DNA from: an uncultured Alphaproteobacteria bacterium
GTDB lineage: Bacteria; Pseudomonadota; Alphaproteobacteria; Rhodobacterales; Rhodobacteraceae
Length of the DNA stretch: 64,000 nucleotides
Reading direction: 5' to 3'
Assembly: GCA_902586855.1 (NCBI GenBank)
Contig: CACIIZ010000001.1
Span: 54,326-118,325, forward strand
This document shows positions 21,746 to 59,535 of this stretch, one piece after another. Under the pieces are notes generated by a model. The model was not told the origin of the DNA. It did no database searches and saw only the letters and a list, made by a program, of their open reading frames with translations. The position numbers were made by a program, and so were the translations under genes. Position 1 is the first letter of the stretch. Every line of letters begins with the position of its first letter.

Positions 21746-21747
21746 TT

Positions 21748-24582: not shown

Positions 24583-24670
24583 ATATAAAAACAGGTTGGA
24601 GTAAACATTAAATAGTTTTGTCATGTTAACGAGTACAGTTAGTAAAATTGAAACGAAAGGGAGAAAAAAA

Positions 24671-25630: not shown

Positions 25631-25658
25631 GTTTACGGACTTTTAATGAACCAATAAT

Positions 25659-25686
25659 CCGGTTGGCCTTTTTGTAGGCCAATCGG
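25659..25686 (+). terminator. intercistronic hairpin after the SBP gene (attenuator/partial terminator or mRNA-stabilising stem)
   Basis: CCGGTTGGCCT-tttgt-AGGCCAATCGG, an 11-bp stem with one mismatch, lying between tmoX and tmoV. No clear T-run follows. Confidence 0.4.
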
Positions 25687-25718
25687 GGCCTAAATTTTAA
25701 TAGCAAGTGACTAGTTGA

Positions 25719-28758: not shown

Positions 28759-28885
28759 CATAGGTTTCATGCATAAATTTTTGGTCAAAATACTGAAAAA
28801 AAAATGAATTGAATAATTAAATGTTGTTAAATGAGTTTGTTGACAGAGGTTTTTTGAGAGAGGTTTATTATGGTGAAAGTTCCCA

Positions 28886-40679: not shown

Positions 40680-40714
40680 AATTCTTAGATGAAAATTAAT
40701 GATTGGAAAAACTA

Positions 40715-42781: not shown

Positions 42782-42857
42782 TTGTTGTGATCCTCTAAAA
42801 TCTATACTTAATAATTTAATGGTACAGAATTCTCTCTCTTCTTAAAACTTTTTCCAC

Positions 42858-43460: not shown

Positions 43461-43486
43461 ATCGCTCCCTCTTATTTCTAGATAAG

Positions 43487-45577
43487 CTAAAAGACTTTTT
43501 TTACAGTGCCTTCCGTTTCATTTCCTTGATAAATTCCAAATCTCCCATGGTTATACTCTTCGCAATAGCGCTCAATCATTATTCTTTCTGCCAGATTTTT
43601 AATTTTGTGTAACGGTATCTTTTCTAGATTCAGGCTGACTGTTCTCTTATTACCTTTTCCTGAAAATTTCCCATGGTAGAAGATCATATGGGCATTGAGC
43701 TCTTGATCTTCATACACCGAATATAGGAAATCAAGATTAAATATTAGATTCAAGTCTTTTAGATGCTGTTTTAATCCACTTAGACTTTTGTTACTAGTTG
43801 GGGCTTTTGGCAATGACAAGGAGCCATTCTTATCCTTAATAAACAGAATGTGACGATCGCTTTCCAAGATCGCTCCGACTCCTGTATCACTTCCTTCATT
43901 AACCATTTTTACTAGAGAGTGCTCTAACCCTATAGAAAAATAATCACCACGAAAATAGCCAAGAGGATCACCAGATTGATGGAAAAACTCTTCAACATGA
44001 CCAATCATTACAGCGTGATCCCCTATTTCTTGGAAGTTAGTTTTTTGGCATACAAAGTTGGACAAGCACGAGTCCAATAGGGGTAGATTCCCTGTCCCCT
44101 TTTTCCATTTAGTTAAATCAAATTTGTCAGATCTTTGAGATGAGAATAATCCTGCTAAAGAACGCTGTTTTTTACTCAAAACATTGATTACAAAATGGTT
44201 GCTATTTCTAAAGATCTCAAAACTTTGAGCGGTCTTGGCGATGCAAACCAATAACATAGGCGGATCCAGAGAAACAGACGAAAAAGAATTTGCAGTGAAA
44301 CCTCTGGGGGTGCCATCATCTTGTGTTGTAGTCACAACTGTAACGCCCGTGGCAAAAGTTCCAAAGGCAGATCTAAGGTCATTTTTGCCTTCTTCAGTTA
44401 TTTGATTAAATTCATTTTTATAAAAGTCTTCTGCTTTTGTAAGTCCCAATTCTGGAGGATGAGAGAATTTAGGTTGAGGAAATCTACTAAAGTTAAGTGG
44501 ATTTCCCGCTATTCGCCATGGTCTAGATTCTGGATTTGCATGTTTAATTTCCTTTATCATTGATCTTTTGGCAACATGAGGGTCCTTAAATATATCTTTT
44601 GCTGAATTAAGAGTACCAAATGGTACTAATCCGCCTAAAAGAGATTTCAATTCTGATTTTGTTTTTGTCAAAGTCCAGCATCCCACTATTTCATTTAATG
44701 CTTGAGAGTTTTTTTGCCTGCTCGTAATTGAAGAGTATTTTGGATCAGAGGATAGCTCTGGTTTTTCCATTATTTCAGTTAAAATTTTCCAAAATGAATC
44801 ATCTACTATTCCTAGAGCTATAAAACCATCTCTGGCCTTGAAGATCCCAAAAGGTACTAGCAAAGGGTGTCCATTCCCTTCTGGCTTGGGGATAGAACCA
44901 TCCAGGTCGTGTTGATAAATTATTCTTTCGCAAAGACTGATTACGGCATCATACATTGCCAGATCTATGAATTGTCCCTTTCCCGATTTTTCCGACTCTC
45001 TTACTGCAGCTATGATACCAAAAGCCATCATAAGACCTGAGAATATATCTCCAACACCTGGCCCTACTTTTGTAGGAGTGCTTTGGCTGGGTCCTGTTAT
45101 ACTCATAAGTCCACCCATTGCTTGGGCGACGACATCGTAGGATGGCCAATCCATATAAGGGCTTTCCCCAGAAATTGGATTACCAAATCCACTTATGGCA
45201 GCATATACTAATTTTTTATTTACACCTTTTAGATTTTCATATCCCAATCCCATTTTTTCCATGACTCCAGGTCTGAAATTTTCAACCAAAATATCAGCTG
45301 TCTTGACAAGGTTTATGAGACTTTCTTTACCCTGAGGAGTTTTTAAGTCTAGCATTAAGCTTTTCTTGTTTCGATTGAGACTTACAAAATATCCAGACCA
45401 TTTCTTTTTCTTGTCTTCTTTTCTAAAAGGGCCGGTTCCTCTACTGGTATCACCGGAGGGGGGCTCAATTTTAATTACTTCTGCACCATGATCAGCTAAC
45501 ATCATTGTACAATAGGGACCTGAAAGCATTCGTGTTAAATCTAAAACCCGAAGGCCTGATAATAGTCCTTGAGTCAT
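43487..45577 (-). CDS. three-domain fusion: family III (CaiB/BaiF) CoA-transferase + flavin reductase (FMN-binding split barrel) + ~140-aa C-terminal domain of uncertain (Nudix-fold-like?) type
   Basis: About 696 aa from the ATG at 45577, which lies 1 nt after the upstream stop (TAGAATG). N-terminus: LRVLDLTRMLSGPYCTMMLADHGAEVIKIE. Middle: FGTFATGVTVVTT...PRGFTANSFSSVSLDPPMLLVCI. C-terminus: VGAILESDRHILFIKDKNGSLSLPK... Confidence 0.8.
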   Translation of the reverse strand: MTQGLLSGLRVLDLTRMLSGPYCTMMLADHGAEVIKIEPPSGDTSRGTGPFRKEDKKKKWSGYFVSLNRNKKSLMLDLKTPQGKESLINLVKTADILVENFRPGVMEKMGLGYENLKGVNKKLVYAAISGFGNPISGESPYMDWPSYDVVAQAMGGLMSITGPSQSTPTKVGPGVGDIFSGLMMAFGIIAAVRESEKSGKGQFIDLAMYDAVISLCERIIYQHDLDGSIPKPEGNGHPLLVPFGIFKARDGFIALGIVDDSFWKILTEIMEKPELSSDPKYSSITSRQKNSQALNEIVGCWTLTKTKSELKSLLGGLVPFGTLNSAKDIFKDPHVAKRSMIKEIKHANPESRPWRIAGNPLNFSRFPQPKFSHPPELGLTKAEDFYKNEFNQITEEGKNDLRSAFGTFATGVTVVTTTQDDGTPRGFTANSFSSVSLDPPMLLVCIAKTAQSFEIFRNSNHFVINVLSKKQRSLAGLFSSQRSDKFDLTKWKKGTGNLPLLDSCLSNFVCQKTNFQEIGDHAVMIGHVEEFFHQSGDPLGYFRGDYFSIGLEHSLVKMVNEGSDTGVGAILESDRHILFIKDKNGSLSLPKAPTSNKSLSGLKQHLKDLNLIFNLDFLYSVYEDQELNAHMIFYHGKFSGKGNKRTVSLNLEKIPLHKIKNLAERIMIERYCEEYNHGRFGIYQGNETEGTVKKVF

Positions 45578-45578
45578 T

Positions 45579-46397
45579 CTAGGTAGACCCAACTTTAATG
45601 AATTGTTGTAAAAACGGTTTGATGATAGATCCGAATTGATTTGGATCCTCCACCAATCCCATATGCTTTAAATTTCTCATAATTAAAAGCTGGCTCTGGT
45701 TGATTTCATTTGCTATCATTTTACTCATTTCCGGTCCATTGCCGTAATCTTGATCTGCTGTAACCACTAAAGTTGGACAGTTGATTGGTGGTTGAGGTTT
45801 TATAATCTCTTCTAAATCATAAGCCAAGATCTTATAGATTTTTGGGTATATATTAGGATCATTGGCAACAATCCATTTTCTAACTTTATTAATTATTCTA
45901 GGATTATCTTTTTCAAATTTTTCACTGAACCATCTAGTAATTGCATCTGACACAGTGGCTTTAGGTCCAAATCTTTGGGATAGTGTAACTCTGGCCTCTA
46001 TTGAGGATTGCTGCTCTTTGGTTCGAGAGTGGGGGGAGTTTATTATTATTAGACCTTCCACTAATTCAGGAAAATCCTGCGCAAATCGTCTGACTATCAT
46101 TCCGCCTAAGGAAAATCCTGCCAAGATTATTTGTTTGAAGTTACAGTAATCCATCAACTCCTTTATTTGCAAAGAAAACATTTTTAGGGAGGGGGTTTTT
46201 TCGGGTAAGATGCTTCCTCCATGTCCACAAAGATCGTAGGTCACTATGGTAAATTCTTCTTCTAGATTTTTGGGTAGCCATTGCCACATTTCCCTATTCA
46301 AACCTAGACCATGAACAAAAATAAGAATTTTTTGTGGAGACAATCCCCTTATTTCAAACTTGGTTCCTTTGGTAGTAATAGATGATATTTTTGTCAC
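45579..46397 (-). CDS. alpha/beta-fold hydrolase
   Basis: 272 aa with a GTG start and AGGTG SD. HGLGLN oxyanion region and nucleophile elbow GFSLGG. Confidence 0.8.
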   Translation of the reverse strand: MTKISSITTKGTKFEIRGLSPQKILIFVHGLGLNREMWQWLPKNLEEEFTIVTYDLCGHGGSILPEKTPSLKMFSLQIKELMDYCNFKQIILAGFSLGGMIVRRFAQDFPELVEGLIIINSPHSRTKEQQSSIEARVTLSQRFGPKATVSDAITRWFSEKFEKDNPRIINKVRKWIVANDPNIYPKIYKILAYDLEEIIKPQPPINCPTLVVTADQDYGNGPEMSKMIANEINQSQLLIMRNLKHMGLVEDPNQFGSIIKPFLQQFIKVGST

Positions 46398-46404
46398 TTC
46401 ACAC

Positions 46405-46797
46405 CTAGGAAAATTTTTGAGGCTTGTAGGCTATTACTTCTATTTCTACCTTCACATCTACTAACAACTCATTTACTAAGGCAGACCTAGCCGGAGGGTC
46501 ATCAGGGAAGTATTCACTATAGATTTTATTAAAACCTGGGAAATCATTTTTGTCCTTAAGCCATACCATTGATTTGACCACGTCATCCAGTGTGCAATTT
46601 GCCAAGGAAAGGGTGTTTCTAATTTCTTCAATTACAGCTCTGGTTTGTTCTTCTATTCTTCCGCTCGTCATTACCGCTCCGTTTTTCATGGGGACTTGTC
46701 CTGTGCAAAAAATGAAATCACCGGCTTGTACAGCTCGTGAAAGAGATAACTCTCTTCCATTAATTATAAAGGGCTCCCCCAAGACTTTTTTTTTCAT
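46405..46797 (-). CDS. RidA/YjgF-family enamine/imine deaminase-like protein
   Basis: About 130 aa, YjgF-like (GQVP..., ...VEIEVIA). The ATG at 46797 has an AAGGTG SD; the track GTG at 46806 is an alternative. Confidence 0.8.
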   Translation of the reverse strand: MKKKVLGEPFIINGRELSLSRAVQAGDFIFCTGQVPMKNGAVMTSGRIEEQTRAVIEEIRNTLSLANCTLDDVVKSMVWLKDKNDFPGFNKIYSEYFPDDPPARSALVNELLVDVKVEIEVIAYKPQKFS

Positions 46798-46869
46798 ATC
46801 GTTCACCTTCTAAACGGTTCTACGCTGTTAAAAGAAGTTTATTTCTAAAATCCTCAAAAAAAGCGTACA

Positions 46870-46928: not shown

Positions 46929-48410
46929 ATGACTGAAGTCAAAAAATATCAAATGCTTATTAATGGAAGCTGGACTAGCGGAATGGATAAAAAGTTTTTT
47001 GATAGTGTGAATCCGTATACAGGTCAGGTGTGGTGTAGGGTACCTGAGGCAAGTTCCAAAGATGTAGATGCTGCAGTGAGGGCTGCACATAAGGCTTTTA
47101 CAACCGGAGCTTGGGCTAAAATGACCCCAACCCAGAGAGGAGTTTGTTTAAGAAGGCTCGCAGATTTACTTTCTGAAACGTCAGAGCCTTTAGGTAAAAT
47201 AGAAACCATTGATACTGGGAAAATGCTTAAGGAAACGCGATGGCAGGCAAAGTATATTGCAGAGTTTTTTCACTTCTACGCTGGGTGCGCCGACAAAATT
47301 AGTGGGGAAACTTTGCCAATAGATAAACCTGACCTGGTTGTCTTCACGGAAAGGGAACCATTGGGGGTGGTTGCTGCAGTTGTCCCATGGAATTCTCAAT
47401 TATTCTTAGTTGCAGTTAAATTAGGACCTGCTCTTGCAGCTGGAAATACTGTGGTGCTTAAGGCTTCGGAGCATGCATCTGCAGCAATGTTAGAGTTTGG
47501 TAAACTTATTGAAAAGGCAGGATTTCCAGCTGGAGTTGTAAATATTATTACTGGTCACGGCGACCCGTGTGGAAGGGAATTGACATCCCATCCTTTGGTT
47601 TCGCGTATTTCCTTTACTGGGGGACCAAGGTCAGCACAAAGTATTATAAGAAATTCTTCTGAGAACTTTGCAGAAGTATCACTTGAATTAGGAGGTAAAT
47701 CACCTTTCATAGTTTTTGATGATGCAAATTTAGAAAGTGCTGTGAACGGATCCATTGCTGGAATTTTTGGTGCTACAGGTCAAAGCTGTGTAGCAGGGTC
47801 AAGATTATATTTGCACGAAAAAATTGCTGATGAATTTCTGGAAAAAATGTTACGAATTGTTCAAACCATTAATTTAGGTGATCCCCTTGAGGAGAAAACT
47901 CAAATGGGACCCTTATGCACGATGGGACAAATAGAAAATATTGAAACTGAATTAAGAGAAGCCCAATCTCAAGGTGGCGAGCTTTTATGTGGGGGTGGTA
48001 GACCTGAAAATTTAGAAGGTCATTTTTTTCAACCTACTATAATTTCTTGCCCCGACCAGTCCTTAAAAATTGTGGACACTGAGCTTTTTGGCCCTGTGTT
48101 GAGCGTATTAACTTTCCGAGAGGAAGAGGAGGCAATCAATCTTGCCAACGATACGAAGCATGGGCTGGCTGCTGGTATATTTAGCGAAAATAGTGCGCGA
48201 TCTATGCGAGTTGCGAAGTCGGTTAGGGCTGGTATAGTATGGGTAAACACGTATAGGGTAGTATCGCCCATAGCGCAGTTTGGGGGCTTTAAAGGTTCCG
48301 GTTATGGACGGGAAAGTGGTTTTCAAGCCATGTATGACTATACGCGTCCAAAAACCATCTGGTTGAATACATCAAATGAGCCAATGAGTAATCCTTTTGT
48401 AATGCGCTAA
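46929..48410 (+). CDS. NAD(P)-dependent aldehyde dehydrogenase
   Basis: 493 aa with ELGGKSP and catalytic Cys context GQSCVAGSR. GGAGG SD. Confidence 0.9.
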   Translation: MTEVKKYQMLINGSWTSGMDKKFFDSVNPYTGQVWCRVPEASSKDVDAAVRAAHKAFTTGAWAKMTPTQRGVCLRRLADLLSETSEPLGKIETIDTGKMLKETRWQAKYIAEFFHFYAGCADKISGETLPIDKPDLVVFTEREPLGVVAAVVPWNSQLFLVAVKLGPALAAGNTVVLKASEHASAAMLEFGKLIEKAGFPAGVVNIITGHGDPCGRELTSHPLVSRISFTGGPRSAQSIIRNSSENFAEVSLELGGKSPFIVFDDANLESAVNGSIAGIFGATGQSCVAGSRLYLHEKIADEFLEKMLRIVQTINLGDPLEEKTQMGPLCTMGQIENIETELREAQSQGGELLCGGGRPENLEGHFFQPTIISCPDQSLKIVDTELFGPVLSVLTFREEEEAINLANDTKHGLAAGIFSENSARSMRVAKSVRAGIVWVNTYRVVSPIAQFGGFKGSGYGRESGFQAMYDYTRPKTIWLNTSNEPMSNPFVMR

Positions 48411-48448
48411 TACCCATTATCGTTCTGTCAATTATTAAGGAGAAAGTA

Positions 48449-49252
48449 GTGACCCATGGTATAGAAGTAAAAAAGTCAGGAAAAGTACTAGAAGTTTGTC
48501 TCGATAGACCAAAGGTTAATGCGATTGATGTAAAAATGAGTCAAGAATTAGGCAAAGCTTTTGCTGAACTGAGAGATAATAATGACTTGTGGGTAGGGAT
48601 CTTAACAGCTCAAGGAGACAAGATTTTTTCAGCAGGTTGGGACCTTAAAGCTCTAAACTCTGGGGAAATGTCTTTAGAAAATTGGTGGGAAACTTCAGAT
48701 TATGGAGATGGAGGTTTTGCTGGTTTAACTGAAAACTGGGATTTGAATAAGCCAGTCATTGGTGCTTTAAATGGCTTGGTAATAGGGGGTGGTTTTGAAT
48801 TGGCACTAGGCTGTGATCTTTTAATTGCAGCTGAACATGTTGAATTTGGTTTGCCTGAGATGCCTCTCGGTATAGTGCCGGATGCAGGTGCTCTTCAACG
48901 CCTGCCACGAAGAATACCCTATAACATAGCCATGGAAATGTTCTTGTTGGGGCGTAGAATGTCTGCTGCTGAGGCAAAGCACTATGGTCTTATAAATAAA
49001 ATAGTAAAATCTGAAAATCTGTTAGATGAAGCTCGCGAGTGGGCGAGTCAGATCGCCTCGTCAGCTCCTTTGGCCATGCAAAGTGTGAAAGAAGTGTTGA
49101 GAGCAATAGAATGTCATCCATTAGAGTCGGCTTTTTCCAAGATGCGAAAAGATGACCTAGAAACTTATAAAAAAATGCTGAGTTCTAAGGATGCAGAAGA
49201 AGGTATAGCGGCGTTTGTTGAGCGGCGAGCCCCCAAGTTTAAGGGTGAGTGA
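48449..49252 (+). CDS. enoyl-CoA hydratase/isomerase (crotonase) family protein, CaiD-like
   Basis: 267 aa with a GTG start and AAGGAGAAAG SD. Crotonase motifs: FSAGWDLK and GGGFELALGCDL. Confidence 0.85.
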   Translation: MTHGIEVKKSGKVLEVCLDRPKVNAIDVKMSQELGKAFAELRDNNDLWVGILTAQGDKIFSAGWDLKALNSGEMSLENWWETSDYGDGGFAGLTENWDLNKPVIGALNGLVIGGGFELALGCDLLIAAEHVEFGLPEMPLGIVPDAGALQRLPRRIPYNIAMEMFLLGRRMSAAEAKHYGLINKIVKSENLLDEAREWASQIASSAPLAMQSVKEVLRAIECHPLESAFSKMRKDDLETYKKMLSSKDAEEGIAAFVERRAPKFKGE

Positions 49253-50199
49253 TGAAGCTAATTGATCTAAGTAGCGTAGAGAGGGTTTGTAGCATTGGAG
49301 GTGGTCCAATAGGGGCTGGTTGGGCAGCCTTTTTCTTATCGAAGGGTCTTTCCGTAAAGGCTTATTTACATTCAGAAAGAGAGGAAGACAGCTTTCGGTC
49401 AATGATTGACACAGCCTGGATCTCGTTAGAGAAATTAACTGATCTAGTCAATGTCAACCTAGATTTAATACAAGTAAGCACAGACCTAGACGATGCTGTT
49501 CAAGATGCCGACTTCATTCAAGAAAGTGCCCCAGAAATTTTATCCTTAAAACAAGATCTTTATAATCATTTAGGAAAAATTGTTCGCAGTGACGTTGTGA
49601 TTTGTTCCTCCACTTCCGGTTTGACAATGTCGGAAATCCAGGCGCATTGTCAAACAGCTGAGAGAACGGTAGTTGCTCATCCATTCAACCCACCATATTT
49701 ACTACCGTTGGTAGAAATAGTGGGAGGAAAGAAGACCAATCCAGAGGCGGTTGACTGGGCGAAAAACTTTTATGAACGTATCGGTAAAGTTCCTTTAGTC
49801 ATGAACAAAGAAATTCCTGGCTTTATTGCCACAAGACTACAAGAAGCTTTGTGGAGGGAGGCATTACACATGGTAGTTAATGAAGAGGCAACTCCAGAGC
49901 AAATAGACAAAGCTCTGATTAATGGTCCTGGCCCCAGACTGGCAATTCAGGGGCAATGTCTTGCATTTCATGTTGCTTGTGGAGAAGGAGGTATGGCCAC
50001 TAACTTAGATCAATTTGGACCCGCTTTAAAACTACCTTGGACAAGATTGCATGCTCCTAAATTGACGAAGAAATTAAGAGACTCAATGGTTTTAGGCTGT
50101 AATGATATGACCAAAGACCAGGACTTTCAAAGCCTTGCCCTTGAACGGGATAGGAAGATAGTGGAGATTTTAAAAGTACAAAAAACAAATGCTTCTTAA
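49252..50199 (+). CDS. 3-hydroxyacyl-CoA-dehydrogenase-fold NAD enzyme, L-carnitine dehydrogenase-like
   Basis: About 315 aa. The N-terminus IGGGPIGAGWAAFFLSKGLSV resembles the LcdH / L-gulonate 3-dehydrogenase subgroup (GxGxIGxxWA). A BKACE gene follows directly. TGATG overlap with the upstream gene. Confidence 0.65.
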   Translation: MKLIDLSSVERVCSIGGGPIGAGWAAFFLSKGLSVKAYLHSEREEDSFRSMIDTAWISLEKLTDLVNVNLDLIQVSTDLDDAVQDADFIQESAPEILSLKQDLYNHLGKIVRSDVVICSSTSGLTMSEIQAHCQTAERTVVAHPFNPPYLLPLVEIVGGKKTNPEAVDWAKNFYERIGKVPLVMNKEIPGFIATRLQEALWREALHMVVNEEATPEQIDKALINGPGPRLAIQGQCLAFHVACGEGGMATNLDQFGPALKLPWTRLHAPKLTKKLRDSMVLGCNDMTKDQDFQSLALERDRKIVEILKVQKTNAS

Positions 50200-50232
50200 T
50201 TTGCTGAGATTAAATTGAATAGGGAGGTTGGC

Positions 50233-51120
50233 ATGAACTTTGAAGTGGTTATTACATGTGCGGTTACAGGTGCTGGAGACACGGTAGGCAAGAGTGATAA
50301 GGTTCCAATTACCCCTAAAGAAATAGCAAATGAAGCATTATCTGCTGCCGAAGCTGGAGCCACGTCAGTGCATTTACATGTTAGAGACCCTGAAACTGGG
50401 AAAGGTTCAAGAGATCCTAAGCTTTTCAAAGAAACTATCGATAGACTACGTGACAATAAACAAGACGTAATAATTAATCTTACAGCTGGGATGGGTGGTG
50501 ATTGGGTTGTTAACCCCAACAACCTAATTGAACCGGGACCTGGTACAGATATGATTAATGCTGAGGAAAGGTTGGCACATGTTAAGGAATGTTTGCCAGA
50601 GATTTGTTCTATAGATTGTGGAACTATGAATTTTGGAAACGATAACGAGATTTATATTTCAACTCCGCCATTTTTGAGGCAGATGGCACAATTAACTCAA
50701 GAGTGGGGTGTGAAACCTGAGCTAGAGGTTTTTGATCTCGGGCATATCCGTTTTGCTAAGGAAATGATTAAAGAGGGGCTGGTTGACGAGCCTCCTTTAT
50801 TTCAAATTTGTTTAGGAATTCCTTGGGGAGCTGAACAATCTGTTGATACGATGAAAATTATGAAAGATCATTTGCCGGCAAACTGTTTTTGGGCAGGATT
50901 TGGTATTTCCCGTATGCAAATGCCTATGGTAGCCGCTGCCGTGACTTTAGGAGGAAATGTTCGGGTGGGACTAGAGGACAATTTATACCTAAAAAAAGGA
51001 ATACTGGCTTCGAATGCAGATCTGGTTATTAATGCTAAAAACATTGTTGAACTTATGGGTGGTAGAGTTCTAACCCCAGAGGAAGCAAGGAAAAAGTTTC
51101 AACTGAAAAAGCAAGCCTAG
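50233..51120 (+). CDS. beta-keto acid cleavage enzyme (BKACE; 3-keto-5-aminohexanoate cleavage family, DUF849)
   Basis: About 295 aa from the ATG at 50233. ITCAVTGAGDT and SVHLHVRDPETG are typical of BKACE TIM barrels. Confidence 0.8.
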   Translation: MNFEVVITCAVTGAGDTVGKSDKVPITPKEIANEALSAAEAGATSVHLHVRDPETGKGSRDPKLFKETIDRLRDNKQDVIINLTAGMGGDWVVNPNNLIEPGPGTDMINAEERLAHVKECLPEICSIDCGTMNFGNDNEIYISTPPFLRQMAQLTQEWGVKPELEVFDLGHIRFAKEMIKEGLVDEPPLFQICLGIPWGAEQSVDTMKIMKDHLPANCFWAGFGISRMQMPMVAAAVTLGGNVRVGLEDNLYLKKGILASNADLVINAKNIVELMGGRVLTPEEARKKFQLKKQA

Positions 51121-51153
51121 TAATCAAACAAATTAAAAAGGAGGAAGAGAAGA

Positions 51154-52314
51154 TTGGATCAAGTGACCAGCTCAGAAAATTCCCTTCTGCTGATGACTGT
51201 TAGTAAGTTCTTGGAAGAAGAAATTTTACCACATGAAGATGAAGTTGATAAGACTGGTGAAGTTAGTCCAGACTTAGGAAGACAAATTGAAACACGAGCC
51301 AAAGAGGTGGGCTTGTTTGCTGCCAATCTGCCAGTTGAAGTTGGAGGAGGAGGTTTGGATTATCGTTCTATGATGGTCTTGGAGAGGGAGTACGGAAAAA
51401 CTTCCCATGCATTGCACTCCTGGATTGCCCGACCTACTGAAATTTTACTTGCTTGTAATGAAGAGCAAAGAGAAGAGTTTCTATATCCTTGTGTTAAGGG
51501 AGATAAGAGAGAATTATTTGCCCTCACTGAACCAGGAGCTGGTTCGGATGTCATGGGAATGAAATCAAATGCTGTAAAAAACGGTGATGATTGGATTTTG
51601 AATGGGTCTAAGCACTTCATATCTGGACCGTGTATGCCTCATTTTGCGATTGTTTTTGCTGTGACTGGAGAGGACAAGACAAAAAGAGGTGTCCGCAAAA
51701 GAATTACTGCTTTTTTGGTTAATCGAGGAGAAAAAGGGTTTGATATAAGGGAGGGAACTAAATGCGTCAGTTATCGTGGATACAAAACTTTTGCACTAAA
51801 CTTCAATGATGTAAGACTTTCCAAGAGAATGGTTCTCGGAAAAGAAGGGGAAGGATTAAAGCTTTCTGGTAAATGGCTGGGTATGGGACGCATATGGGTT
51901 GGTGCTTCCTGTTGTGGGAAGGCTGAACGTATGATTAAGTTGGCATCGGAGTGGGCTGCCGATAGAAAGCAATTTGGACAACCTATTGGGAAATTTCAAG
52001 GAATAGGCTTTCGTCTAGCTGACATGGCAGTAGGGCTAAAAGCAGCAGATTTAATGGTCCATGACGCTGTAGATAAAGCAGAAAATAAAATCATGAAAGA
52101 TGAGGATGCAGCTATGGTAAAGCTTTTTTGCTCAGAGATGGTTAATAAGGTTGCTGACGATACTGTTCAAATATTTGGTGGAATGGGTCTAATGGAAGAA
52201 ATGCCCATCCAAAGATTATGGAGAGATAGCCGCCTAGAGAAAATTTGGGATGGTACATCGGAAATACAGCGACATATAATTGCCAGATCGATACTGCGAC
52301 CTCTCGGGGCATGA
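51154..52314 (+). CDS. acyl-CoA dehydrogenase family protein (CaiA-like position)
   Basis: 386 aa with a TTG start and AAGGAGGAAG SD. ALTEPGAGSD, QIFGGMG and a C-terminal EIQRHIIAR. Confidence 0.9.
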   Translation: MDQVTSSENSLLLMTVSKFLEEEILPHEDEVDKTGEVSPDLGRQIETRAKEVGLFAANLPVEVGGGGLDYRSMMVLEREYGKTSHALHSWIARPTEILLACNEEQREEFLYPCVKGDKRELFALTEPGAGSDVMGMKSNAVKNGDDWILNGSKHFISGPCMPHFAIVFAVTGEDKTKRGVRKRITAFLVNRGEKGFDIREGTKCVSYRGYKTFALNFNDVRLSKRMVLGKEGEGLKLSGKWLGMGRIWVGASCCGKAERMIKLASEWAADRKQFGQPIGKFQGIGFRLADMAVGLKAADLMVHDAVDKAENKIMKDEDAAMVKLFCSEMVNKVADDTVQIFGGMGLMEEMPIQRLWRDSRLEKIWDGTSEIQRHIIARSILRPLGA

Positions 52315-54407
52315 GACTAAATCAAACTAAAAACTTAGGTCGATTATTAAGACCCTCACAAATTGCTTTCGTTGGCGGTTCTGACGCGGAGGTGGCAATT
52401 AATGAAGCAATAAGACGTGGGTTTTCGGGATCGATCTGGCCCGTAAATCCCTCTCGAGATCATATGGCTGGCTATAAATGCTTTAAATCGGTTTTAGATT
52501 TGCCATTCGGGCCAGACGCTGTTTTTCTTGCTATTCCTGCCAAAAAGGTTTTGAAAACCATAAATGAACTTCGTGAAGTCTCAGCAGGTGGAATCGTGTG
52601 CTACACGGCTGGATTTCGGGAGATAGGAGAAACGGGTTTTTTGATTGAAAAGGAACTTGTAAAAGACCTAGGCGACATGGTTATGGTTGGTCCAAATTGT
52701 TATGGGGTGATCAATTATTTGGAGGAATATGCTCTGTGGCCCTTTGCACATGGTGGATTTTGTCCAGGTTATGGGGCAGCGATAATTACGCAGAGTGGAA
52801 TGCTTTCTTCCGATATCACTATGAGTCAAAGATCTTTGCCTTTAACACACATGATATCCTTGGGTAACCAGGCTTCCTTAAAGAGTGCTGATTTCATAAA
52901 GTACTTAAGTACCTCTAGGCCAGTTAGGGCATTTGGACTTCACATCGAGAGTATAGAAGATATACAAGATTTCGAGATGGCCGCATTGAAAGCATTGAAA
53001 GCGAACAAACCCATCGTAGTTTTAAAAACAGGAACTTCCCAAATAGGGGCTAATCTCACCAAAAGTCATACGGGATCATTTGCTGGCTCAAATGAAATTT
53101 ACAACGCTTTATTTGAGCGATTAGGAATAATTACCGTTAGCACGCCATCAGAATTAATTGAAACTCTTAAGTTTATCTGTATCTCGGGTATTCCAAGAGG
53201 GAAGAAATGTGCAGCTTTTACTTGTTCTGGTGGTGGAGCGACTCTCGTAGCGGATTTTGGAGAAAAATTAGGTCTAGAATTCCCAGGTTTTTCATCATTT
53301 GATTCAGGAATTGTTTCTAAGCTTTTGCCCAGTATAGCAACAGTATCTAACCCACTAGACTATACCACACCAATTTGGGGAAAGAAAGAATTCACCAAGC
53401 CACTTTTTGCGAATGTTTTAGAAAAATTAGAGGTGGATTGTACCTTGATTGTGCAAGACTATCCTCTCAAGGGGCTTGATGATACAAAAGTACATTATTT
53501 AACAGATGGAAAAGCTTTTTCTGAAGCAGCTTCAGAAAAAAGAATTCCTGGTGCAATTGTCTCAACAATATCGGAAAATATAGATGAGCAGACACGAAAT
53601 ACGTTTCTGTCCAAGGGCATTGCTCCCTTACAAGGTTTAGCAGACTCCCTTCAAGCCATATCCAAAGCGGGTTCATGGGATCTTAATAGAAAGAAGATTT
53701 TAGGTAGAAATAACCTGCCTTTGTTTCCTAGTGCTCCCTTAAAAAACTTATCTTACGTCGATGAATGGGAGGCTAAGACTTTAATCTCTGAAGAAGGTGT
53801 GTGCATCCCAAAAGGAGTAAAGTCTGCAGTTGAAAATATAATGGAGAGCGCAAATAAAATTGGGTTTCCGCTTGCGGTGAAACTATTGAGCAAAGATCTA
53901 CTCCATAAAACTGAACTGGGGGCAGTGCATTTAAATATCAGAAACGAACTGGAGCTAAGAAGATCGGTAATGAAAATCAGGTATAATCTAGAACGCTACC
54001 AAGACAAATATGATGTAAATTCCTTCTTATTAGAAGAAATGGTTCCCAAGCCTATATGTGAATTAATTGTAGGTATTAGACGTGACCCACACTTTGGTCT
54101 TGTCCTAACACTAGGTTCTGGGGGGGTTTTTGCTGATTTAATCAACGATTACCAGTTGCTACTTTTGCCTGCCCAGCGGAAGGAAATTTTCCAAAAGATT
54201 ATGTTATTAAAGGTTGGAAAGATTATAGCTGGTTATAGGGGACTTATAGGATCTAACTCAAATATGGTGGTCGATTGCATTGACAAGTTGGTCATGTTCG
54301 TTTCAAAAAAGGGTTCTAGAATTGCAGAACTTGAAATTAATCCTCTGTATGTCTTTGAAGAAAAGGTCATAGCCATTGATACCCTGTTGGCAAGAGAACA
54401 ATCATAA
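52311..54407 (+). CDS. ADP-forming acyl-CoA synthetase family protein (CoA-binding + succinyl-CoA-synthetase-like + ATP-grasp domains)
   Basis: About 698 aa from the ATG at 52311 (ATGA overlap with the ACAD stop). N-terminus LLRPSQIAFVGGS is the CoA-binding fold, and the C-terminus is ATP-grasp (FPLAVKLLS...HKTELGAV). The track's N-terminal extension is out of context. Confidence 0.8.
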   Translation: MRLNQTKNLGRLLRPSQIAFVGGSDAEVAINEAIRRGFSGSIWPVNPSRDHMAGYKCFKSVLDLPFGPDAVFLAIPAKKVLKTINELREVSAGGIVCYTAGFREIGETGFLIEKELVKDLGDMVMVGPNCYGVINYLEEYALWPFAHGGFCPGYGAAIITQSGMLSSDITMSQRSLPLTHMISLGNQASLKSADFIKYLSTSRPVRAFGLHIESIEDIQDFEMAALKALKANKPIVVLKTGTSQIGANLTKSHTGSFAGSNEIYNALFERLGIITVSTPSELIETLKFICISGIPRGKKCAAFTCSGGGATLVADFGEKLGLEFPGFSSFDSGIVSKLLPSIATVSNPLDYTTPIWGKKEFTKPLFANVLEKLEVDCTLIVQDYPLKGLDDTKVHYLTDGKAFSEAASEKRIPGAIVSTISENIDEQTRNTFLSKGIAPLQGLADSLQAISKAGSWDLNRKKILGRNNLPLFPSAPLKNLSYVDEWEAKTLISEEGVCIPKGVKSAVENIMESANKIGFPLAVKLLSKDLLHKTELGAVHLNIRNELELRRSVMKIRYNLERYQDKYDVNSFLLEEMVPKPICELIVGIRRDPHFGLVLTLGSGGVFADLINDYQLLLLPAQRKEIFQKIMLLKVGKIIAGYRGLIGSNSNMVVDCIDKLVMFVSKKGSRIAELEINPLYVFEEKVIAIDTLLAREQS

Positions 54408-54553
54408 TTCCAGTTTTTTAACTGTATGATTGTCTTCAGAAAAGGTATTTGCATGTCCAAGTTTGTTGAAAGAATACCTCGCTTGGATTACGCTTTTCGT
54501 TAGCTTATGTAATTAATTCTTTATGGGATAGATCTTTTAGGTTAGCCTAAATT

Positions 54554-55726
54554 ATGAGAGCATTTGAGGGAATTCGTGTACTAGATCTCACCCATGTATT
54601 TGCGGGCCCTTTTTGTACCTTTCAACTGGCAGTGATGGGTGCAGATGTCATAAAGATCGAATCGCCTCATTTTCCTGACATGATGAGAGATGAAGGGAAC
54701 TCAGAAGCTTTAAACAGTTTGGGGCTAAGCAACTTTTTTGTTTGTCAAAACAGCGAAAAAAAATCACTCTCTCTTGATTTGGAATTAGGTAGTGACAGAA
54801 AAGTTTTTCTGAAATTGGTGAAAACGGCTGACGTATTAGTCCAAAATTATTCTGGTAAGGCTATGGAAAGATTAGGTTTATCTTATGAAAAACTTAAAAT
54901 AATTAATCCTAAACTCATCTATTGTTCCATGACTGGATTTGGTCAGACAGGACCAAAGGCAGAAGACCCAGCCTATGATTCAGTAATACAAGCCTATTCT
55001 GGTTTGATGGAACTAAACGGTCTTAAAAGTACTGGTCCAATGCGTGTAGGGCCTGCTATAGTTGATTACGGTACGGGCATTCATGCAGCATTTGCCATCT
55101 CATCGGCTCTCTACAGGCGGACAGTTACGGGAGAAGGATTAGAGATTGATCTTTCAATGTTGGATGCTGCTTTAATGCTTATGACCTCTACAGTATCAGA
55201 CTGTTTAGCTTCTGGGATCTCTCAGCCAAATCACGGTAACAACCACCCAGATTATGCAGGGTATGGAACTTATGCTGCAAAGGATAGAATGATTATGATA
55301 GGTGCCTTTACAAAAAGGCAGTTAAATAATTTGTTTCTAGCGTTAGGATTGAAGGAGCAGGCGGGACAAGTTTCTGGCATGAAAAAATCAGAAATCAAAG
55401 AAAATAATTCTAGATTTAGATTTCTCATAGAGAAAGTAATAGAAACCAAAACTGCAGATCATTGGGAGACTAAGCTGAATTCTTTCCATGTGCCAGCAGC
55501 CAAAGTTCGCACGTTAGTGGAAGCATTAAGGAGTGATCAAATAAGATCTAGGAGAGTGTTGCAAAATTCTTTTCTAACGGAAGCCCCTTGTCATCCGAAG
55601 GTCTTGCCTGTCGCAGCTTTTTCCTATTCGAAGGGGTCTCCAGAAATTACTAGAGCAGCTCCAAGAATTGGGAGAGATAATGTAAAAATCATTAAAAATG
55701 CAAGTGATTCTCTCAAGAAAATATAA
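54554..55726 (+). CDS. family III (CaiB/BaiF) CoA-transferase
   Basis: 390 aa with IRVLDLTHVFAGPFCTFQLAVMGADVIKIE and the later GPAIVDYGTG region. Confidence 0.85.
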   Translation: MRAFEGIRVLDLTHVFAGPFCTFQLAVMGADVIKIESPHFPDMMRDEGNSEALNSLGLSNFFVCQNSEKKSLSLDLELGSDRKVFLKLVKTADVLVQNYSGKAMERLGLSYEKLKIINPKLIYCSMTGFGQTGPKAEDPAYDSVIQAYSGLMELNGLKSTGPMRVGPAIVDYGTGIHAAFAISSALYRRTVTGEGLEIDLSMLDAALMLMTSTVSDCLASGISQPNHGNNHPDYAGYGTYAAKDRMIMIGAFTKRQLNNLFLALGLKEQAGQVSGMKKSEIKENNSRFRFLIEKVIETKTADHWETKLNSFHVPAAKVRTLVEALRSDQIRSRRVLQNSFLTEAPCHPKVLPVAAFSYSKGSPEITRAAPRIGRDNVKIIKNASDSLKKI

Positions 55727-55896
55727 AACTAAAAATATAAACCTATGATTTTAATGTGGAAATTGGTTTAATTCGAGAATTTGTAATTAACTGTTGAAAT
55801 CAGGTGCTGCACCGATTTACAATGTGCACTCATCACTAGAGCTACTGTTCATTAATTTGACAGTGGACATAAAGAACTATTTTTGGAGGAACACTA

Positions 55897-57543
55897 ATGA
55901 GTCGAACAAATAAACGCCCAAAAGTTTTGGGAGAATTTGGATTTAAAAATCTTAGCCTACATGAGCAGCAAGAAGTCGTAACTGCTATTCGAAAGGGTGC
56001 TACTAGAAGAGATATCATGACTTGGATGATGGCTGCTGGTGCTACGGCAACAACTGGCGGAGCAATTTTTTCAAGTGGCTCAGAGGTTTGGGCTAATACA
56101 CCAAAACGGGGTGGTAGACTTGTTTGTGCGGGTGACCAGCATGGGCCAGCTGATACTTTAGATCCCATTTTATGTACAGCATCTGTGGATTATTGGCGTG
56201 GAAGGATGTTCTATGGAAAATTAGTGCGTCTCAAAGATGACTTGAGTTGGGAACCCGAGCTTGCAGAAGAAGTGATCGTCAATTCTGATGCAACTAAATG
56301 GACCTTCAAAATCAGAAAAGGTGTGGAGTTTCATAATGGAAAAACATTGAATGCTGATGATGTTGTTTATACTCTGAAAAGACACCTTGGACCTGATACT
56401 AAATCTATTGGTAAATCGCAGATGGATATGGTTTCAGAAGTAAAGAAGATAAATGAATATGAAGTAGAAGTTAATCTGAAGACACCGAATGCTGATCTCG
56501 TGAACTCTTTAGGGACTTTCCACTTTAATGTTATTCAGGACGGTGTAACTGACTTTTCAACTGCAATTGGTACGGGTCCTTACCGTTGTAAGGAATTTAA
56601 GCCTGGTGTCCGAACTGTGGGTACACCATTCGAAAATTGCTGGCATGGACCAGGTTATATGGATGAAATGGAGCACTTTGGAATTGGAGATCCAGTTTCT
56701 CGACTAAATGCATTTTTGGCTGGTGACGTTGACATGATGGTAAATTTACCTGGAAAAGCTGTTAAGGAAGTAGAAGCTGCTGCAGGTAAGGAAGTATGGT
56801 CAATTGAGTCTGGACGTTATACAAGTATAGTGTGCCATCAGGGTGTATCCCCATCCAATAATCGAGATTTAGTTAGAGCTATGCAGCTTTGTATGGATCG
56901 CACTCGGATTGTGAAGGGCGAACTTAAAGGCTTAGGGAGTGTTGGAAATGATCAACCGATCAATAAAGCTTATTTTGATTATAGTCCAGATATCCCACAA
57001 CGTCCTCTTGATTTGGATAAGGCGAAGTATCACTTCGAAAAGTCTGGAATAGGGTCTACTGCTATACCGATTATAGCTGCTGAAGTATCGCAAGCTGCGA
57101 CATTCCAGTGTTTGGCTCTTCAGAGAGAAGCAAAGAAAATTGGAATGAATATCGACGTGCAGAAGGTTACTACAGATGGTTACTGGGGTGCAGTGTGGAT
57201 GCAAGGTTCTCCATTTAATGTAACCACCTGGAATATGAGACCAACAGCAAATATCATGATGACCTTGGCCTACAAAGGTGACTCCAACTGGAATGAAACT
57301 TTCTGGCAGAGTGATAAATTTGACAAAGGTCTGGTTGATGTGCGTGGAGTGACTGATGCAGCTAAGAGAAAGCAAATGTATCATGACCTTCAGATGGACA
57401 TCCATGAAAATGGTGGTTCAATAACTCCGGCACACCTTAACTACACGGATGCTGTAGCATCGAATGTAAAAGGATTGACTCATGTGCCTCTGAATAATTG
57501 GGGCGGGGCAGAAGCCCCTCCATACATTTGGAAAGACGCTTAA
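55897..57543 (+). CDS. ABC transporter substrate-binding protein, family 5 (Dpp/Opp/Nik type), Tat-exported
   Basis: 548 aa with a GGAGGA SD 6 nt upstream. Twin-arginine signal GATRRDIMTWMMAAGATATTGGAIFSSGSEVWA, preceded by a ~35-aa n-region. Confidence 0.85.
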   Translation: MSRTNKRPKVLGEFGFKNLSLHEQQEVVTAIRKGATRRDIMTWMMAAGATATTGGAIFSSGSEVWANTPKRGGRLVCAGDQHGPADTLDPILCTASVDYWRGRMFYGKLVRLKDDLSWEPELAEEVIVNSDATKWTFKIRKGVEFHNGKTLNADDVVYTLKRHLGPDTKSIGKSQMDMVSEVKKINEYEVEVNLKTPNADLVNSLGTFHFNVIQDGVTDFSTAIGTGPYRCKEFKPGVRTVGTPFENCWHGPGYMDEMEHFGIGDPVSRLNAFLAGDVDMMVNLPGKAVKEVEAAAGKEVWSIESGRYTSIVCHQGVSPSNNRDLVRAMQLCMDRTRIVKGELKGLGSVGNDQPINKAYFDYSPDIPQRPLDLDKAKYHFEKSGIGSTAIPIIAAEVSQAATFQCLALQREAKKIGMNIDVQKVTTDGYWGAVWMQGSPFNVTTWNMRPTANIMMTLAYKGDSNWNETFWQSDKFDKGLVDVRGVTDAAKRKQMYHDLQMDIHENGGSITPAHLNYTDAVASNVKGLTHVPLNNWGGAEAPPYIWKDA

Positions 57544-57563
57544 TTCTAAATAATCTTTATTGA

Positions 57564-57593
57564 GGGGGCAGATTTTTTTGCCCCCTATTTTTT
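57564..57593 (+). terminator. rho-independent terminator/attenuator after the SBP gene
   Basis: GGGGGCA-gatttttt-TGCCCCC followed by TATTTTTT. Confidence 0.75.
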
Positions 57594-57596
57594 AAT

Positions 57597-57626
57597 GAAT
57601 AAGTAAGATAATAAGAAAACTTATTC
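57597..57626 (+). terminator. second AT-rich hairpin between the SBP and permease genes
   Basis: GAATAAGT-N14-ACTTATTC, a perfect 8-bp stem. Function is unclear (RNA processing or stability, or an operator). Confidence 0.25.
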
Positions 57627-57651
57627 GCTAATATGCTTTGGAATATTTTTA

Positions 57652-58605
57652 ATGTTTCCCATACTGATAAAGAAGATTGGAGCGGGCCTCTTAACTACTT
57701 TGGGGGTATCAATTGTTATATTTATAGGGACAAATTTGTTACCAGGTGATGCTGCTCAGATCAGATTGGGTCAGGCGTCAACAGAAGACTCTTTGAAAGC
57801 TCTGAGAGAAGAGCTAGGTTTAAATTTACCTCTTTATCAACAATATTTCAGATGGTTGTTTAATTTCGTCCAAGGAGATTTTGGTACCTCCTTAGCCAGT
57901 GGAAATGTGACAATTGCTCAATTAATATCGGACCGATATGAAAATACTCTAATTGTGAGTTCTTTAACTGCAATGATAGGTGTCCCTATTTCTGTAGGCT
58001 TGGGAATAATAGCAGCCATGTTTCCAGGTACACTTTATGATCGAATTCTAACTTTAGGATCTGTAACCTTAGTAGCAGCACCGGAATTTTTTACAGCAAC
58101 ACTAATGGTTTTATTTGTAGTGTTTTTCTTAGGAATTGGGAATGCTGTTGTTGTTGGTTCGATTGAAGACAAAAATTTAGTTGAACTAATTACCCACTTT
58201 ATCTTGCCAATTACCACTCTTTGTTTGGTGATAGCTGCACAACTTATCAGAATGACCAGGGCAGCAGTATTAAATGTCATGAGTTCCCCTTACATTGAAA
58301 TGGCTATCTTAAAAGGCATTCCAAGAAGAAGGGTGGTCATGAGGCATGCCCTTTTAAATGCAATAGGCCCTATAGTAAACGTGATAGCCATTAATTTAGC
58401 TTATGTGGTTACAGGAGTAATTGTGATTGAGGTATACTTTGGCTATTCAGGTTTGGCGACACTCATTGTGCAAGGAGTGCAAACTAGAGACTATATACTT
58501 ATACAAACTTTGGGAATGATATTTTGTGCTACTTACGTGATTTTAATGCTGATAGCTGATTTGTCGTCAATACTATCAAATCCCCGTTTGAGGCATCCTA
58601 AATGA
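57652..58605 (+). CDS. ABC transporter permease (DppB/OppB type)
   Basis: 317 aa, polytopic, in the standard position after a family-5 SBP. Confidence 0.85.
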   Translation: MFPILIKKIGAGLLTTLGVSIVIFIGTNLLPGDAAQIRLGQASTEDSLKALREELGLNLPLYQQYFRWLFNFVQGDFGTSLASGNVTIAQLISDRYENTLIVSSLTAMIGVPISVGLGIIAAMFPGTLYDRILTLGSVTLVAAPEFFTATLMVLFVVFFLGIGNAVVVGSIEDKNLVELITHFILPITTLCLVIAAQLIRMTRAAVLNVMSSPYIEMAILKGIPRRRVVMRHALLNAIGPIVNVIAINLAYVVTGVIVIEVYFGYSGLATLIVQGVQTRDYILIQTLGMIFCATYVILMLIADLSSILSNPRLRHPK

Positions 58606-59531: not shown

Positions 59532-59535
59532 ATCT

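Follow-up and report, generated by a model that had tools for sequence, protein, structure and literature searches.

A putative betaine-catabolic gene cluster of Bco/Cdh type joined to a Tgn-like oxygenase module in an uncultured Rhodobacteraceae bacterium

Described betaine routes and the plus-strand operon

The closest described counterpart of the gene cluster analysed here is the bco/cdh locus of Sinorhizobium meliloti, which converts gamma-butyrobetaine to L-carnitine and further to glycine betaine, an arrangement that we refer to as type A. The cluster lies at 46929-55726 on the plus strand of a 64,000-nucleotide stretch of DNA (the window) from an uncultured alphaproteobacterium of the family Rhodobacteraceae (assembly GCA_902586855.1, contig CACIIZ010000001.1, positions 54,326 to 118,325). 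Judged from its gene families, the plus-strand operon would encode a route of Bco/Cdh type for the breakdown of a betaine-type, quaternary-ammonium carboxylic acid, with gamma-butyrobetaine, crotonobetaine and L-carnitine as the likeliest substrates, a reading that we consider slightly better than even (probability of roughly 0.55). The proposed chemistry is not new, as this type of pathway is already known. The cluster is nevertheless a widespread, undescribed variant that lacks a thioesterase, is rich in coenzyme A (CoA)-transferases and is joined to a module resembling the Tgn enzymes of trigonelline degradation; no description of such a combined CoA/BKACE and oxygenase cluster was found in the literature.

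The type A route, credited by citing papers to Bazire et al. (2019), reportedly takes gamma-butyrobetaine to glycine betaine in seven steps with five enzymes. In the S. meliloti locus (L009, CP090106.1) a GlxA regulator gene is followed by genes for BKACE, a 496-aa fusion of carnitine 3-dehydrogenase and thioesterase, an acyl-CoA dehydrogenase, an NDP-forming ligase, CaiD and an SBP_bac_5 ATP-binding cassette (ABC) transporter. This record carries the label of plasmid pSymB, but with 3.72 Mb it is evidently chromosomal. The BcoAB-type ligase gene is unannotated in this record and split over two reading frames (16134-18211), by a frameshift or a sequencing error; as the sole ligase of the locus it should correspond to BcoAB. 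Passages on the S. meliloti enzymes relate that BcoAB was used with ATP and CoA to make gamma-butyrobetainyl-CoA from gamma-butyrobetaine. A passage of a further source describes SM2011_c01638 as a bifunctional carnitine dehydrogenase and betainyl-CoA thioesterase (PMC12482172), and, according to a passage on Lonza strain HK4, this strain turns gamma-butyrobetaine into L-carnitine along a pathway that parallels the degradation of fatty acids (PMC2131755).

Two other systems are relevant for comparison. The Pseudomonas-type cdhCAB arrangement, here type P, is the canonical trio of BKACE, L-carnitine dehydrogenase and thioesterase, accompanied by a GlxA regulator and choline/carnitine binding proteins and represented in our data by loci of Caballeronia, B. 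cereus and actinobacteria. The caiTABCDE system of Escherichia coli is reductive and anaerobic and has neither a dehydrogenase of this kind nor a BKACE, whereas the window cluster has both; CoA esters of betaines are used in both systems.

The seven plus-strand open reading frames (ORFs) that an earlier note on this DNA had listed were confirmed in position, order and family, with very strong Pfam scores. Six of them form one compact operon: an aldehyde dehydrogenase (46929-48410; Aldedh, 536 bits), a CaiD/BcoD-like enoyl-CoA hydratase, putatively of crotonobetainyl-CoA type (48449-49252; ECH_1, 220 bits), a short LcdH-like 3-hydroxy-acid dehydrogenase of 316 aa (49249-50199; 3HCDH_N and 3HCDH), a BKACE (50233-51120; PF05853, 324 bits), a BcoC-like acyl-CoA dehydrogenase with three ACAD domains (51154-52314; Acyl-CoA_dh N, M and C) and a BcoAB-like NDP(ADP)-forming acyl-CoA synthetase (52311-54407). 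The architecture of the latter (CoA_binding_2, Succ_CoA_lig and ATP-grasp_5) bears out the suggestion that an ADP-forming ligase stands in place of the AMP-forming CaiC of E. coli. The first two genes are separated by a 38-nt spacer that holds a ribosome-binding site, the hydratase and dehydrogenase genes overlap via GTGATG, the BKACE gene follows 33 nt after the adjacent dehydrogenase gene, and an ATGA overlap joins the stop of the acyl-CoA dehydrogenase gene to the ligase start at 52311. Ribosome-binding sites also precede ATG 50233 of the BKACE gene and TTG 51154 of the acyl-CoA dehydrogenase gene. The starts given by the ORF rule for BKACE (50215) and the ligase (52245) are probably too early, 50233 and 52311 being likelier because of homologue lengths and ribosome-binding sites. 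The seventh gene, coding for a family III CoA-transferase (54554-55726; CoA_transf_3, 346 bits), is set apart from the ligase gene by a 147-nt spacer.

From this gene content we infer what the substrate is, in which direction each step runs and how CoA is released. The ligase would first make the acyl-CoA, which the BcoC-like acyl-CoA dehydrogenase would convert to the 2-enoyl-CoA and the CaiD-like hydratase to the 3-hydroxyacyl-CoA. CoA would then be removed, probably via a family III CoA-transferase, since this variant has no thioesterase; the candidates in the window are a CoA-transferase fusion encoded on the minus strand (43487-45592), the product of 54554-55726 and possibly that of 62355-63479. 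In other lineages hydrolases or the reversible ADP-forming ligase could serve for this release, and as another option CoA may be handed from betainyl-CoA to acetoacetate. The LcdH-like dehydrogenase would oxidise the free 3-hydroxy acid to the 3-keto acid, and BKACE would use acetyl-CoA to cleave the latter into acetoacetate and an acyl-CoA two carbons shorter; in the case of carnitine this product would be betainyl-CoA, leading to glycine betaine. The adjacent SBP_bac_5 ABC system is a plausible importer of the substrate. Finally, the aldehyde dehydrogenase and a minus-strand operon together constitute a Tgn-like two-component oxygenase module, which would either feed the route or degrade a trigonelline-like betaine alongside it.

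A conserved core distinct from type A and type P

The same five enzyme families are found in the window and in S. meliloti type A, namely a BcoAB-type ligase, an acyl-CoA dehydrogenase, a CaiD-like hydratase, a carnitine-type dehydrogenase and BKACE. The window proteins are 54% (BKACE), 49% (acyl-CoA dehydrogenase) and 43% (hydratase) identical to their S. meliloti counterparts, the dehydrogenase is 39% identical overall and 46% over a partial tblastn alignment, and the ligase, of the same three-domain architecture, is 36% and 33% identical to the two frameshifted fragments and 35% identical to the type A ligases of Paracoccus and Sulfitobacter. The ABC transporters are homologous as well (binding protein 33-34%, permeases 41-45%, ATPase 51%). 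However, type A dehydrogenases are fused to a thioesterase (about 480-497 aa), whereas the unfused 316-aa enzyme of the window has no thioesterase domain and scores 247 bits on the model of the fused protein (NF005716) against a cut-off of 592. Gene order also differs, and the window cluster adds family III CoA-transferases and the Tgn-like module. Type A is present in Rhodobacterales too (Paracoccus, Sulfitobacter, many Leisingera plasmids and Ruegeria sp. TM1040; loci L011 and L012 among them), and the difference between the two types is therefore not simply taxonomic.

We call the cluster type of the window type B, a name coined here for clusters that have a short dehydrogenase, lack a thioesterase and in most cases include further genes. 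Such clusters were first met on contigs with BKACEs 73% identical to that of the window, then on pW43B of Parasedimentitalea marina and pSR3 of Aminobacter sp. SR38; in the index of the assembly collection, one BKACE homologue of 73% identity accounts for 552 blocks. When each species was scanned with a single genome, type B turned up in at least 71 of these genomes. Its core of hydratase, dehydrogenase, BKACE, acyl-CoA dehydrogenase and ligase recurs in 71 loci from genomes of different species, which means that the arrangement is not due to chance, and in 63 of 70 loci the dehydrogenase gene is immediately preceded by that of the hydratase. Hosts include Rhodobacterales, Hyphomicrobiales (Aestuariivirga), SAR116, Thalassospiraceae, Gammaproteobacteria and others, and the cultured carriers are P. 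marina W43, Roseovarius albus CECT 7450, Ruegeria conchae TW15, Ruegeria alba and Aminobacter sp. SR38. The nearest relatives of the window cluster (L017-L020) come from metagenome-assembled genomes (MAGs) and single-cell genomes of marine Paracoccaceae; they have its exact layout and dehydrogenases of 69-78% identity. Gene families, operon structure, gene-for-gene homology to S. meliloti and conservation over many taxa are direct observations.

The CoA-transferase encoded at 54554-55726, which had been proposed as a CaiB-like member of the pathway, occurs among type B loci only in L017-L020, and is a lineage-specific addition outside the conserved core. Its best NCBIfam match is CoA:oxalate CoA-transferase (236 bits, cut-off 522), the CaiB model ranks sixth (150 bits, cut-off 413), and its identity to E. 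coli CaiB is 28%. The same identity separates the acyl-CoA dehydrogenase from E. coli CaiA; its best NCBIfam match is acryloyl-CoA reductase (249 bits, cut-off 640), with the CaiA model in ninth place (156 bits, cut-off 540), and it is 47-49% identical to type A enzymes. The CaiA-like and CaiB-like labels therefore hold at superfamily level only, neither being the best family match, whereas CaiD-like is a fair description of the hydratase (48% identity to E. coli CaiD) and LcdH-like agrees with L-carnitine dehydrogenase as the best family match of the dehydrogenase. Alignments revealed a distinctive C-terminal motif, IWDGTSEIQRHI...LRPLGA, common to type A and type B acyl-CoA dehydrogenases. 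The enzymes of both types also read IWDGT at a position where we take the usual motif to be YEGT; if this is right, the catalytic Glu would be Asp in these enzymes. For the ligase of the window, identity amounts to 48-51% with its type B counterparts and to 35-36% with the ligases of type A.

The adjacent dehydrogenase and BKACE pair is a feature shared with type P, as is a GlxA/GbdR-like regulator in orthologous type B clusters. Type P lacks homologues of the ligase, the acyl-CoA dehydrogenase and the hydratase, and has a separate thioesterase (CdhB). Its regulator CdhR is without counterpart inside the window cluster, where no GlxA gene is present; the only GlxA-type gene of the window is at 12656-13618. 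BKACEs of type B are 56-66% identical to those of type P and 51-58% to those of type A, and because types A and P themselves differ by 51-63% identity in this protein, the type B BKACE falls inside the span between two carnitine-linked types. The window BKACE in particular is 54% identical to that of S. meliloti and 56-59% to those of the canonical clusters of Caballeronia and B. cereus, and its alignment shows the His-x-His and Glu-Asp motifs that are the Zn ligands of Kce. Dehydrogenases of type B are 41-47% identical to type P enzymes (50-52% to actinobacterial ones) and 33-39% to the fused type A enzymes, and the window dehydrogenase shows these same values; type A and type P dehydrogenases are 45-50% identical to each other. 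Acyl-CoA dehydrogenases (47-53%) and ligases (35-40%) complete the comparison of type B with type A.

In a neighbour-joining tree the dehydrogenases of type B fall together with 98% bootstrap support, in a clade that is sister to the actinobacterial canonical carnitine dehydrogenases and lies inside the radiation of carnitine dehydrogenases. This position and the best match to L-carnitine dehydrogenase favour the carnitine-type reading, as do the 48% identity of the hydratase to CaiD and the C-terminal motif that the acyl-CoA dehydrogenase has in common with type A.

Transporters and regulators of orthologous type B loci hint at a betaine substrate. A BCCT transporter lies inside the cluster in two gammaproteobacterial loci and an OpuAC binding protein beside it in three alphaproteobacterial loci, and others have PotD-type or SBP_bac_5 systems. 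Orthologous type B clusters have a GlxA regulator gene placed between those for the dehydrogenase and BKACE, and a GlxA-type regulator is also present in S. meliloti type A; the best match of the type B regulators is GbdR (scores of 203-232), and that of the S. meliloti cluster scores 228 on the same model, within this range. On pW43B of P. marina, genes for sarcosine-oxidase gamma, alpha and delta subunits lie directly downstream of the type B cluster (24477-28298 of locus L010), and a proline-racemase-family gene with another GlxA regulator is found nearby (L102, 2553-4701). This plasmid appears to be a replicon for betaine catabolism. A second ligase match on it was considered as a possible type A cluster and rejected, since it belongs to an unrelated hydratase-ligase pair.

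The Tgn-like module and the choice between pathways

The trigonelline pathway of Acinetobacter baylyi, TgnA-F, was reportedly described by Perchat et al. (2018). We take TgnD to be an alpha/beta hydrolase. Passages of two sources state that TgnB has a luciferase-like domain (PMC11354265) and that TgnF is a DUF1185 protein stimulating the oxidation of succinic semialdehyde by TgnE (PMC7913881). A set of genes resembling this pathway, unnoticed in the earlier reading of the window, forms an operon on the minus strand that runs from 46806 down to 41744, divergent from the plus-strand operon. It starts with a RidA-family protein (46405-46806; Ribonuc_L-PSP, 99 bits), followed by an alpha/beta hydrolase that is a candidate TgnD-like enzyme (45579-46397; Abhydrolase_1), a fusion of a family III CoA-transferase with a TgnA-like flavin reductase and a C-terminal tail of ~130 aa (43487-45592; CoA_transf_3, 400 bits; Flavin_Reduct, 130 bits), a DUF1185/AA_synth protein of the TgnF family (42858-43460; PF06684, AA_synth, 211 bits) and a TgnB-like flavin-dependent monooxygenase of the luciferase-like family (41744-42781; Bac_luciferase, 179 bits). 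The likeness to the A. baylyi enzymes, which extends to the aldehyde dehydrogenase, is one of protein family. The tail of the fusion has no Pfam match; it also trails the stand-alone flavin reductases (about 310-326 aa) of Aminobacter, Agrobacterium fabrum and Azospirillum.

Stand-alone modules of this kind, with flavin reductase, aldehyde dehydrogenase, monooxygenase, hydrolase and DUF1185 genes, are located beside ProXWV betaine transporters on pAt of A. fabrum and on an Azospirillum plasmid. Compared with them, the window proteins are 49-51% (oxygenase), 50-53% (DUF1185), 43% (aldehyde dehydrogenase), 31-33% (hydrolase) and 33% (reductase) identical; for A. fabrum taken by itself the values are 49% for the oxygenase, 50% for DUF1185 and 33% for the hydrolase. 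The stand-alone modules have carboxymuconolactone-decarboxylase and NIPSNAP genes that are absent from the window module, whereas the latter is interleaved with Bco/Cdh-type genes and has its reductase fused to a CoA-transferase. The fusion is 55% identical to that of P. marina, and its reductase and tail are 33% identical to the flavin reductase of A. fabrum. RidA proteins are 60-82% identical among type B loci and 48% to the RidA near the A. fabrum module. For the aldehyde dehydrogenase, identity is 72-77% in other type B clusters and 43% to the copy of the stand-alone module on A. fabrum pAt, with betaine-aldehyde dehydrogenase as the best NCBIfam match (476 bits, cut-off 669). The earlier note had suggested that this enzyme could supply the acid from a trimethylaminoaldehyde; it has homologues in the Tgn-like module, the rest of which is encoded at 41744-46806 on the opposite strand.

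Two genes on the plus strand, for a short-chain dehydrogenase/reductase (39909-40679) and a CurA-like NADPH-dependent reductase (40703-41731; 410 bits, cut-off 440), adjoin the oxygenase gene, and either could be a TgnC-type dehydrogenase. Searches of a structure database with the oxygenase and the DUF1185 protein returned only distant or uncharacterised matches, and a search for oxygenase homologues gave generic names only. The homarine operon homABCDER was rejected as a match for the accessory genes, as the FAD-binding HomA, the peptidase-like HomC and others do not fit. A Rut-like pyrimidine pathway, raised by weak hits to RutC, RutD and RutF models, was likewise discarded: the oxygenase is not RutA-like, and a Tgn-type set fits better.

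Module genes were counted in those type B loci, 43 in all, whose flanks extend for 8 kb or more on either side. The monooxygenase gene was found in 30 of these, the aldehyde dehydrogenase gene in 27, the alpha/beta hydrolase gene in 22 and the CoA-transferase-flavin reductase fusion in 13; the complete module is likewise present in 13 loci and not a single module gene in 10. In most type B loci, those of P. marina, Aminobacter and contigs from TARA among them, the monooxygenase gene is flanked, within one operon, by the genes for the aldehyde dehydrogenase and the hydratase. With the copies of P. marina and Aminobacter the window enzyme shares 66% identity, with those of Mesorhizobium and Agrobacterium 47-49%, and with the stand-alone ones of A. 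fabrum and Azospirillum 49-51%. The type B-linked oxygenases form a subfamily apart from the stand-alone ones.

Several results weigh against a carnitine-type route. None of the cluster proteins reaches the curated cut-off of an NCBIfam equivalog model, these models having been used for family typing together with Pfam domains. The hydratase has CaiD (NF002936) as its best match with 292 bits against a cut-off of 500, a score close to that of the S. meliloti hydratase (310 bits). The dehydrogenase, matched best by L-carnitine dehydrogenase (NF005471), obtains 289 bits against a cut-off of 414, whereas the canonical type P enzyme of Caballeronia passes with 615; the S. meliloti enzyme scores 331. 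Type B proteins fall into clades of their own, with ligases only 35-40% identical to those of type A, and the type A clades of BKACE (100% bootstrap) and dehydrogenase exclude the window. The type B BKACEs group weakly (48% bootstrap) on the unresolved backbone of the neighbour-joining tree, and relatives at 43-49% identity occur in non-carnitine contexts, with short-chain dehydrogenase/reductase, GMC or cupin neighbours; neither identity thresholds nor the tree separated carnitine from non-carnitine specificities of BKACE, and its substrate is therefore not fixable by sequence distance alone. A thioesterase homologue is absent from every type B locus. In a SAR116 MAG of Ca. Puniceispirillum (L070, JADHLR010000003.1), the sole case of co-occurrence seen, a complete type B cluster has a type A ligase and hydratase (129-3007) as its immediate neighbours; the identity of this ligase is 45.5% to type A and 33% to the window, and that of the hydratase 70% to type A. 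Such an arrangement suggests non-redundant substrates. Lastly, core genes and those of the Tgn-like module are intermixed within operons, and the flavin reductase of the module forms one polypeptide with a CoA-transferase, features that a plain gamma-butyrobetaine pathway does not explain. The proposal of a path from gamma-butyrobetaine through carnitine to glycine betaine is thus sustained as to its known chemistry and as to the five families present in S. meliloti (36-54% identity), but the window belongs to the separate type B clade, and its substrate may differ.

Type B may, more tentatively, represent one undescribed pathway for another substrate. A flavin oxygenase would open or oxidise an abundant marine N-methylated betaine, Bco-like CoA steps and LcdH/BKACE would follow, and the CoA would be recycled by transferases instead of being lost through a thioesterase. 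In detail, the Tgn-like module would act on an imported betaine of pyridinium or iminium type and release a nitrogen-containing acid, which would be activated with CoA, dehydrogenated, hydrated, released, oxidised and cleaved by BKACE, the resulting acyl-CoA being not betainyl-CoA but, for example, a sarcosyl- or beta-alanine-betaine-type CoA ester. Such a pathway would account for the place of the oxygenase gene within the operon and its frequency among the well-flanked loci, for the distinct oxygenase subfamily, and for the fusion, which physically joins the two halves and never occurs in stand-alone modules. The joint presence of type A and type B CoA modules in L070 points the same way, as do the PotD-type transporters of many type B loci, unlike those of type A, and a six-residue insertion with two Trp in the type B hydratases (SLENWW in the window, SLENWW or QLDNWW in the alignment) that is absent from type A and E. 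coli CaiD. However, the ten well-flanked loci without a module gene, and the cultured R. albus (L025), which has the core and only the aldehyde dehydrogenase from the module, indicate that the core can exist on its own. Moreover, carnitine pathways have the enzymes closest to those of the core, and we could derive no candidate substrate from which Tgn-type cleavage would give a product in need of the CoA/BKACE sequence. We regard this scheme as possible but doubtful.

A lysine-fermentation-type Kce system, or an ordinary operon for beta-oxidation of short-chain fatty acids, would imply 3-keto-5-aminohexanoate or a non-betaine acid as substrate, and is very improbable. The acyl-CoA dehydrogenase, hydratase and 3HCDH proteins do belong to generic beta-oxidation families, and the top NCBIfam name of the BKACE is indeed the 3-keto-5-aminohexanoate cleavage enzyme, as in public annotation, where all its homologues are named "3-keto-5-aminohexanoate cleavage protein". 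This naming is misleading: the window protein scores 246 bits on the Kce model (NF052387) against a cut-off of 382, and among PDB entries 149 bits with Kce (2y7d) compared to 305 with 3c6c, so that Kce is a distant member of the same fold family (PF05853) with a different pathway context. No lysine aminomutase, 3,5-diaminohexanoate dehydrogenase or thiolase is present among the window genes, and these results disfavour the lysine-fermentation subfamily that the earlier note had held up as a contrary outcome. The nearest relatives of BKACE and the dehydrogenase are found in carnitine clusters with a thioesterase, GlxA regulators and choline/carnitine binding proteins, and the surroundings are those of aerobic marine methylated-amine metabolism (Tmm, Tdm and Sox-family genes). 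Anaerobic carnitine respiration of the E. coli Cai type, reducing carnitine to gamma-butyrobetaine, is the least credible explanation, as the CaiD-like hydratase and the presence of an acyl-CoA dehydrogenase and family III CoA-transferases are offset by the superfamily-level kinship (28% identity each) of the latter two to CaiA and CaiB, by the absence of CaiC, CaiT, CaiE and FixABCX near the cluster, and by an LcdH-like dehydrogenase and a BKACE that point to oxidative breakdown.

Genomic surroundings and significance

The putative importer of the carnitine-type route (55897-61212, plus strand) consists, according to Pfam, of an SBP_bac_5 binding protein (55897-57543), two permeases (57652-59531) and a fused double ATPase (59506-61212). 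It begins 171 nt past the CoA-transferase gene, with a promoter-like site (55794-55823) in the gap, and a terminator-like hairpin (57563-57586) follows the binding-protein gene. Just downstream of the ABC system is an EamA transporter gene (61326-62222, plus strand), and the third family III CoA-transferase (62355-63479, minus strand), also downstream, is 29-33% identical to the other two. On the other side of the module, a 714-aa protein (36640-38784, plus strand) shows an unusual combination of Pyr_redox_2 and AIR-synthase-related (AIRS/AIRS_C) domains.

An island for methylated-amine utilisation occupies 15210-31644. It harbors a trimethylamine monooxygenase Tmm (23242-24582; 777 bits, cut-off 675), an OpuAC-type ABC system (24623-28758) and a trimethylamine N-oxide demethylase Tdm (29257-31644; 1200 bits, cut-off 1100), as well as a glutamine-synthetase-like protein (16596-18077), after which come GATase, GXGXG and Glu_synthase subunits (18136-21320); such an order, with its glutamate-synthase-like part, is characteristic of the methylamine/N-methylglutamate pathway. 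FolD, Fhs and SoxG/A/D/B-like genes are located at 4858-12555, SoxA and SoxB being matched by subfamily-level models only, and the GbdR-like GlxA regulator (12656-13618; 271 bits, cut-off 480) lies beside soxB. The SoxA/SoxB-like genes could code for subunits of N-methylglutamate dehydrogenase instead of sarcosine oxidase, two enzymes whose subunits are subject to confusion (PMC13236597). The sox, fhs and folD genes that had been proposed to handle the demethylation products of glycine betaine are thus present, but ~35 kb away, and no enzyme leading from glycine betaine via dimethylglycine to sarcosine was identified in the window. This context fits betaine catabolism in general. Methylamine and formate are the end products of the Tgn trigonelline pathway, and the context equally suits these. 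At the left edge of the window (555-3305, plus strand), genes for a PfkB and DUF2090 (IolC-like) protein and of the KduI/IolB family indicate inositol catabolism.

Methylated nitrogen osmolytes such as glycine betaine, carnitine, gamma-butyrobetaine, trigonelline and homarine are a large and labile pool of marine carbon and nitrogen, and for several of them we know of no degradation genes. The type B cluster is common in ocean data. If it does encode a gamma-butyrobetaine/carnitine route, a pathway of soil rhizobia would be extended to major marine clades in a thioesterase-free form, which may conserve the energy of the CoA ester. If the Tgn-like module is functionally coupled to it, the cluster would be a new route for another betaine and a new union of two known enzyme toolkits, in hosts that include Rhodobacterales, SAR116, Hyphomicrobiales and marine Gammaproteobacteria.

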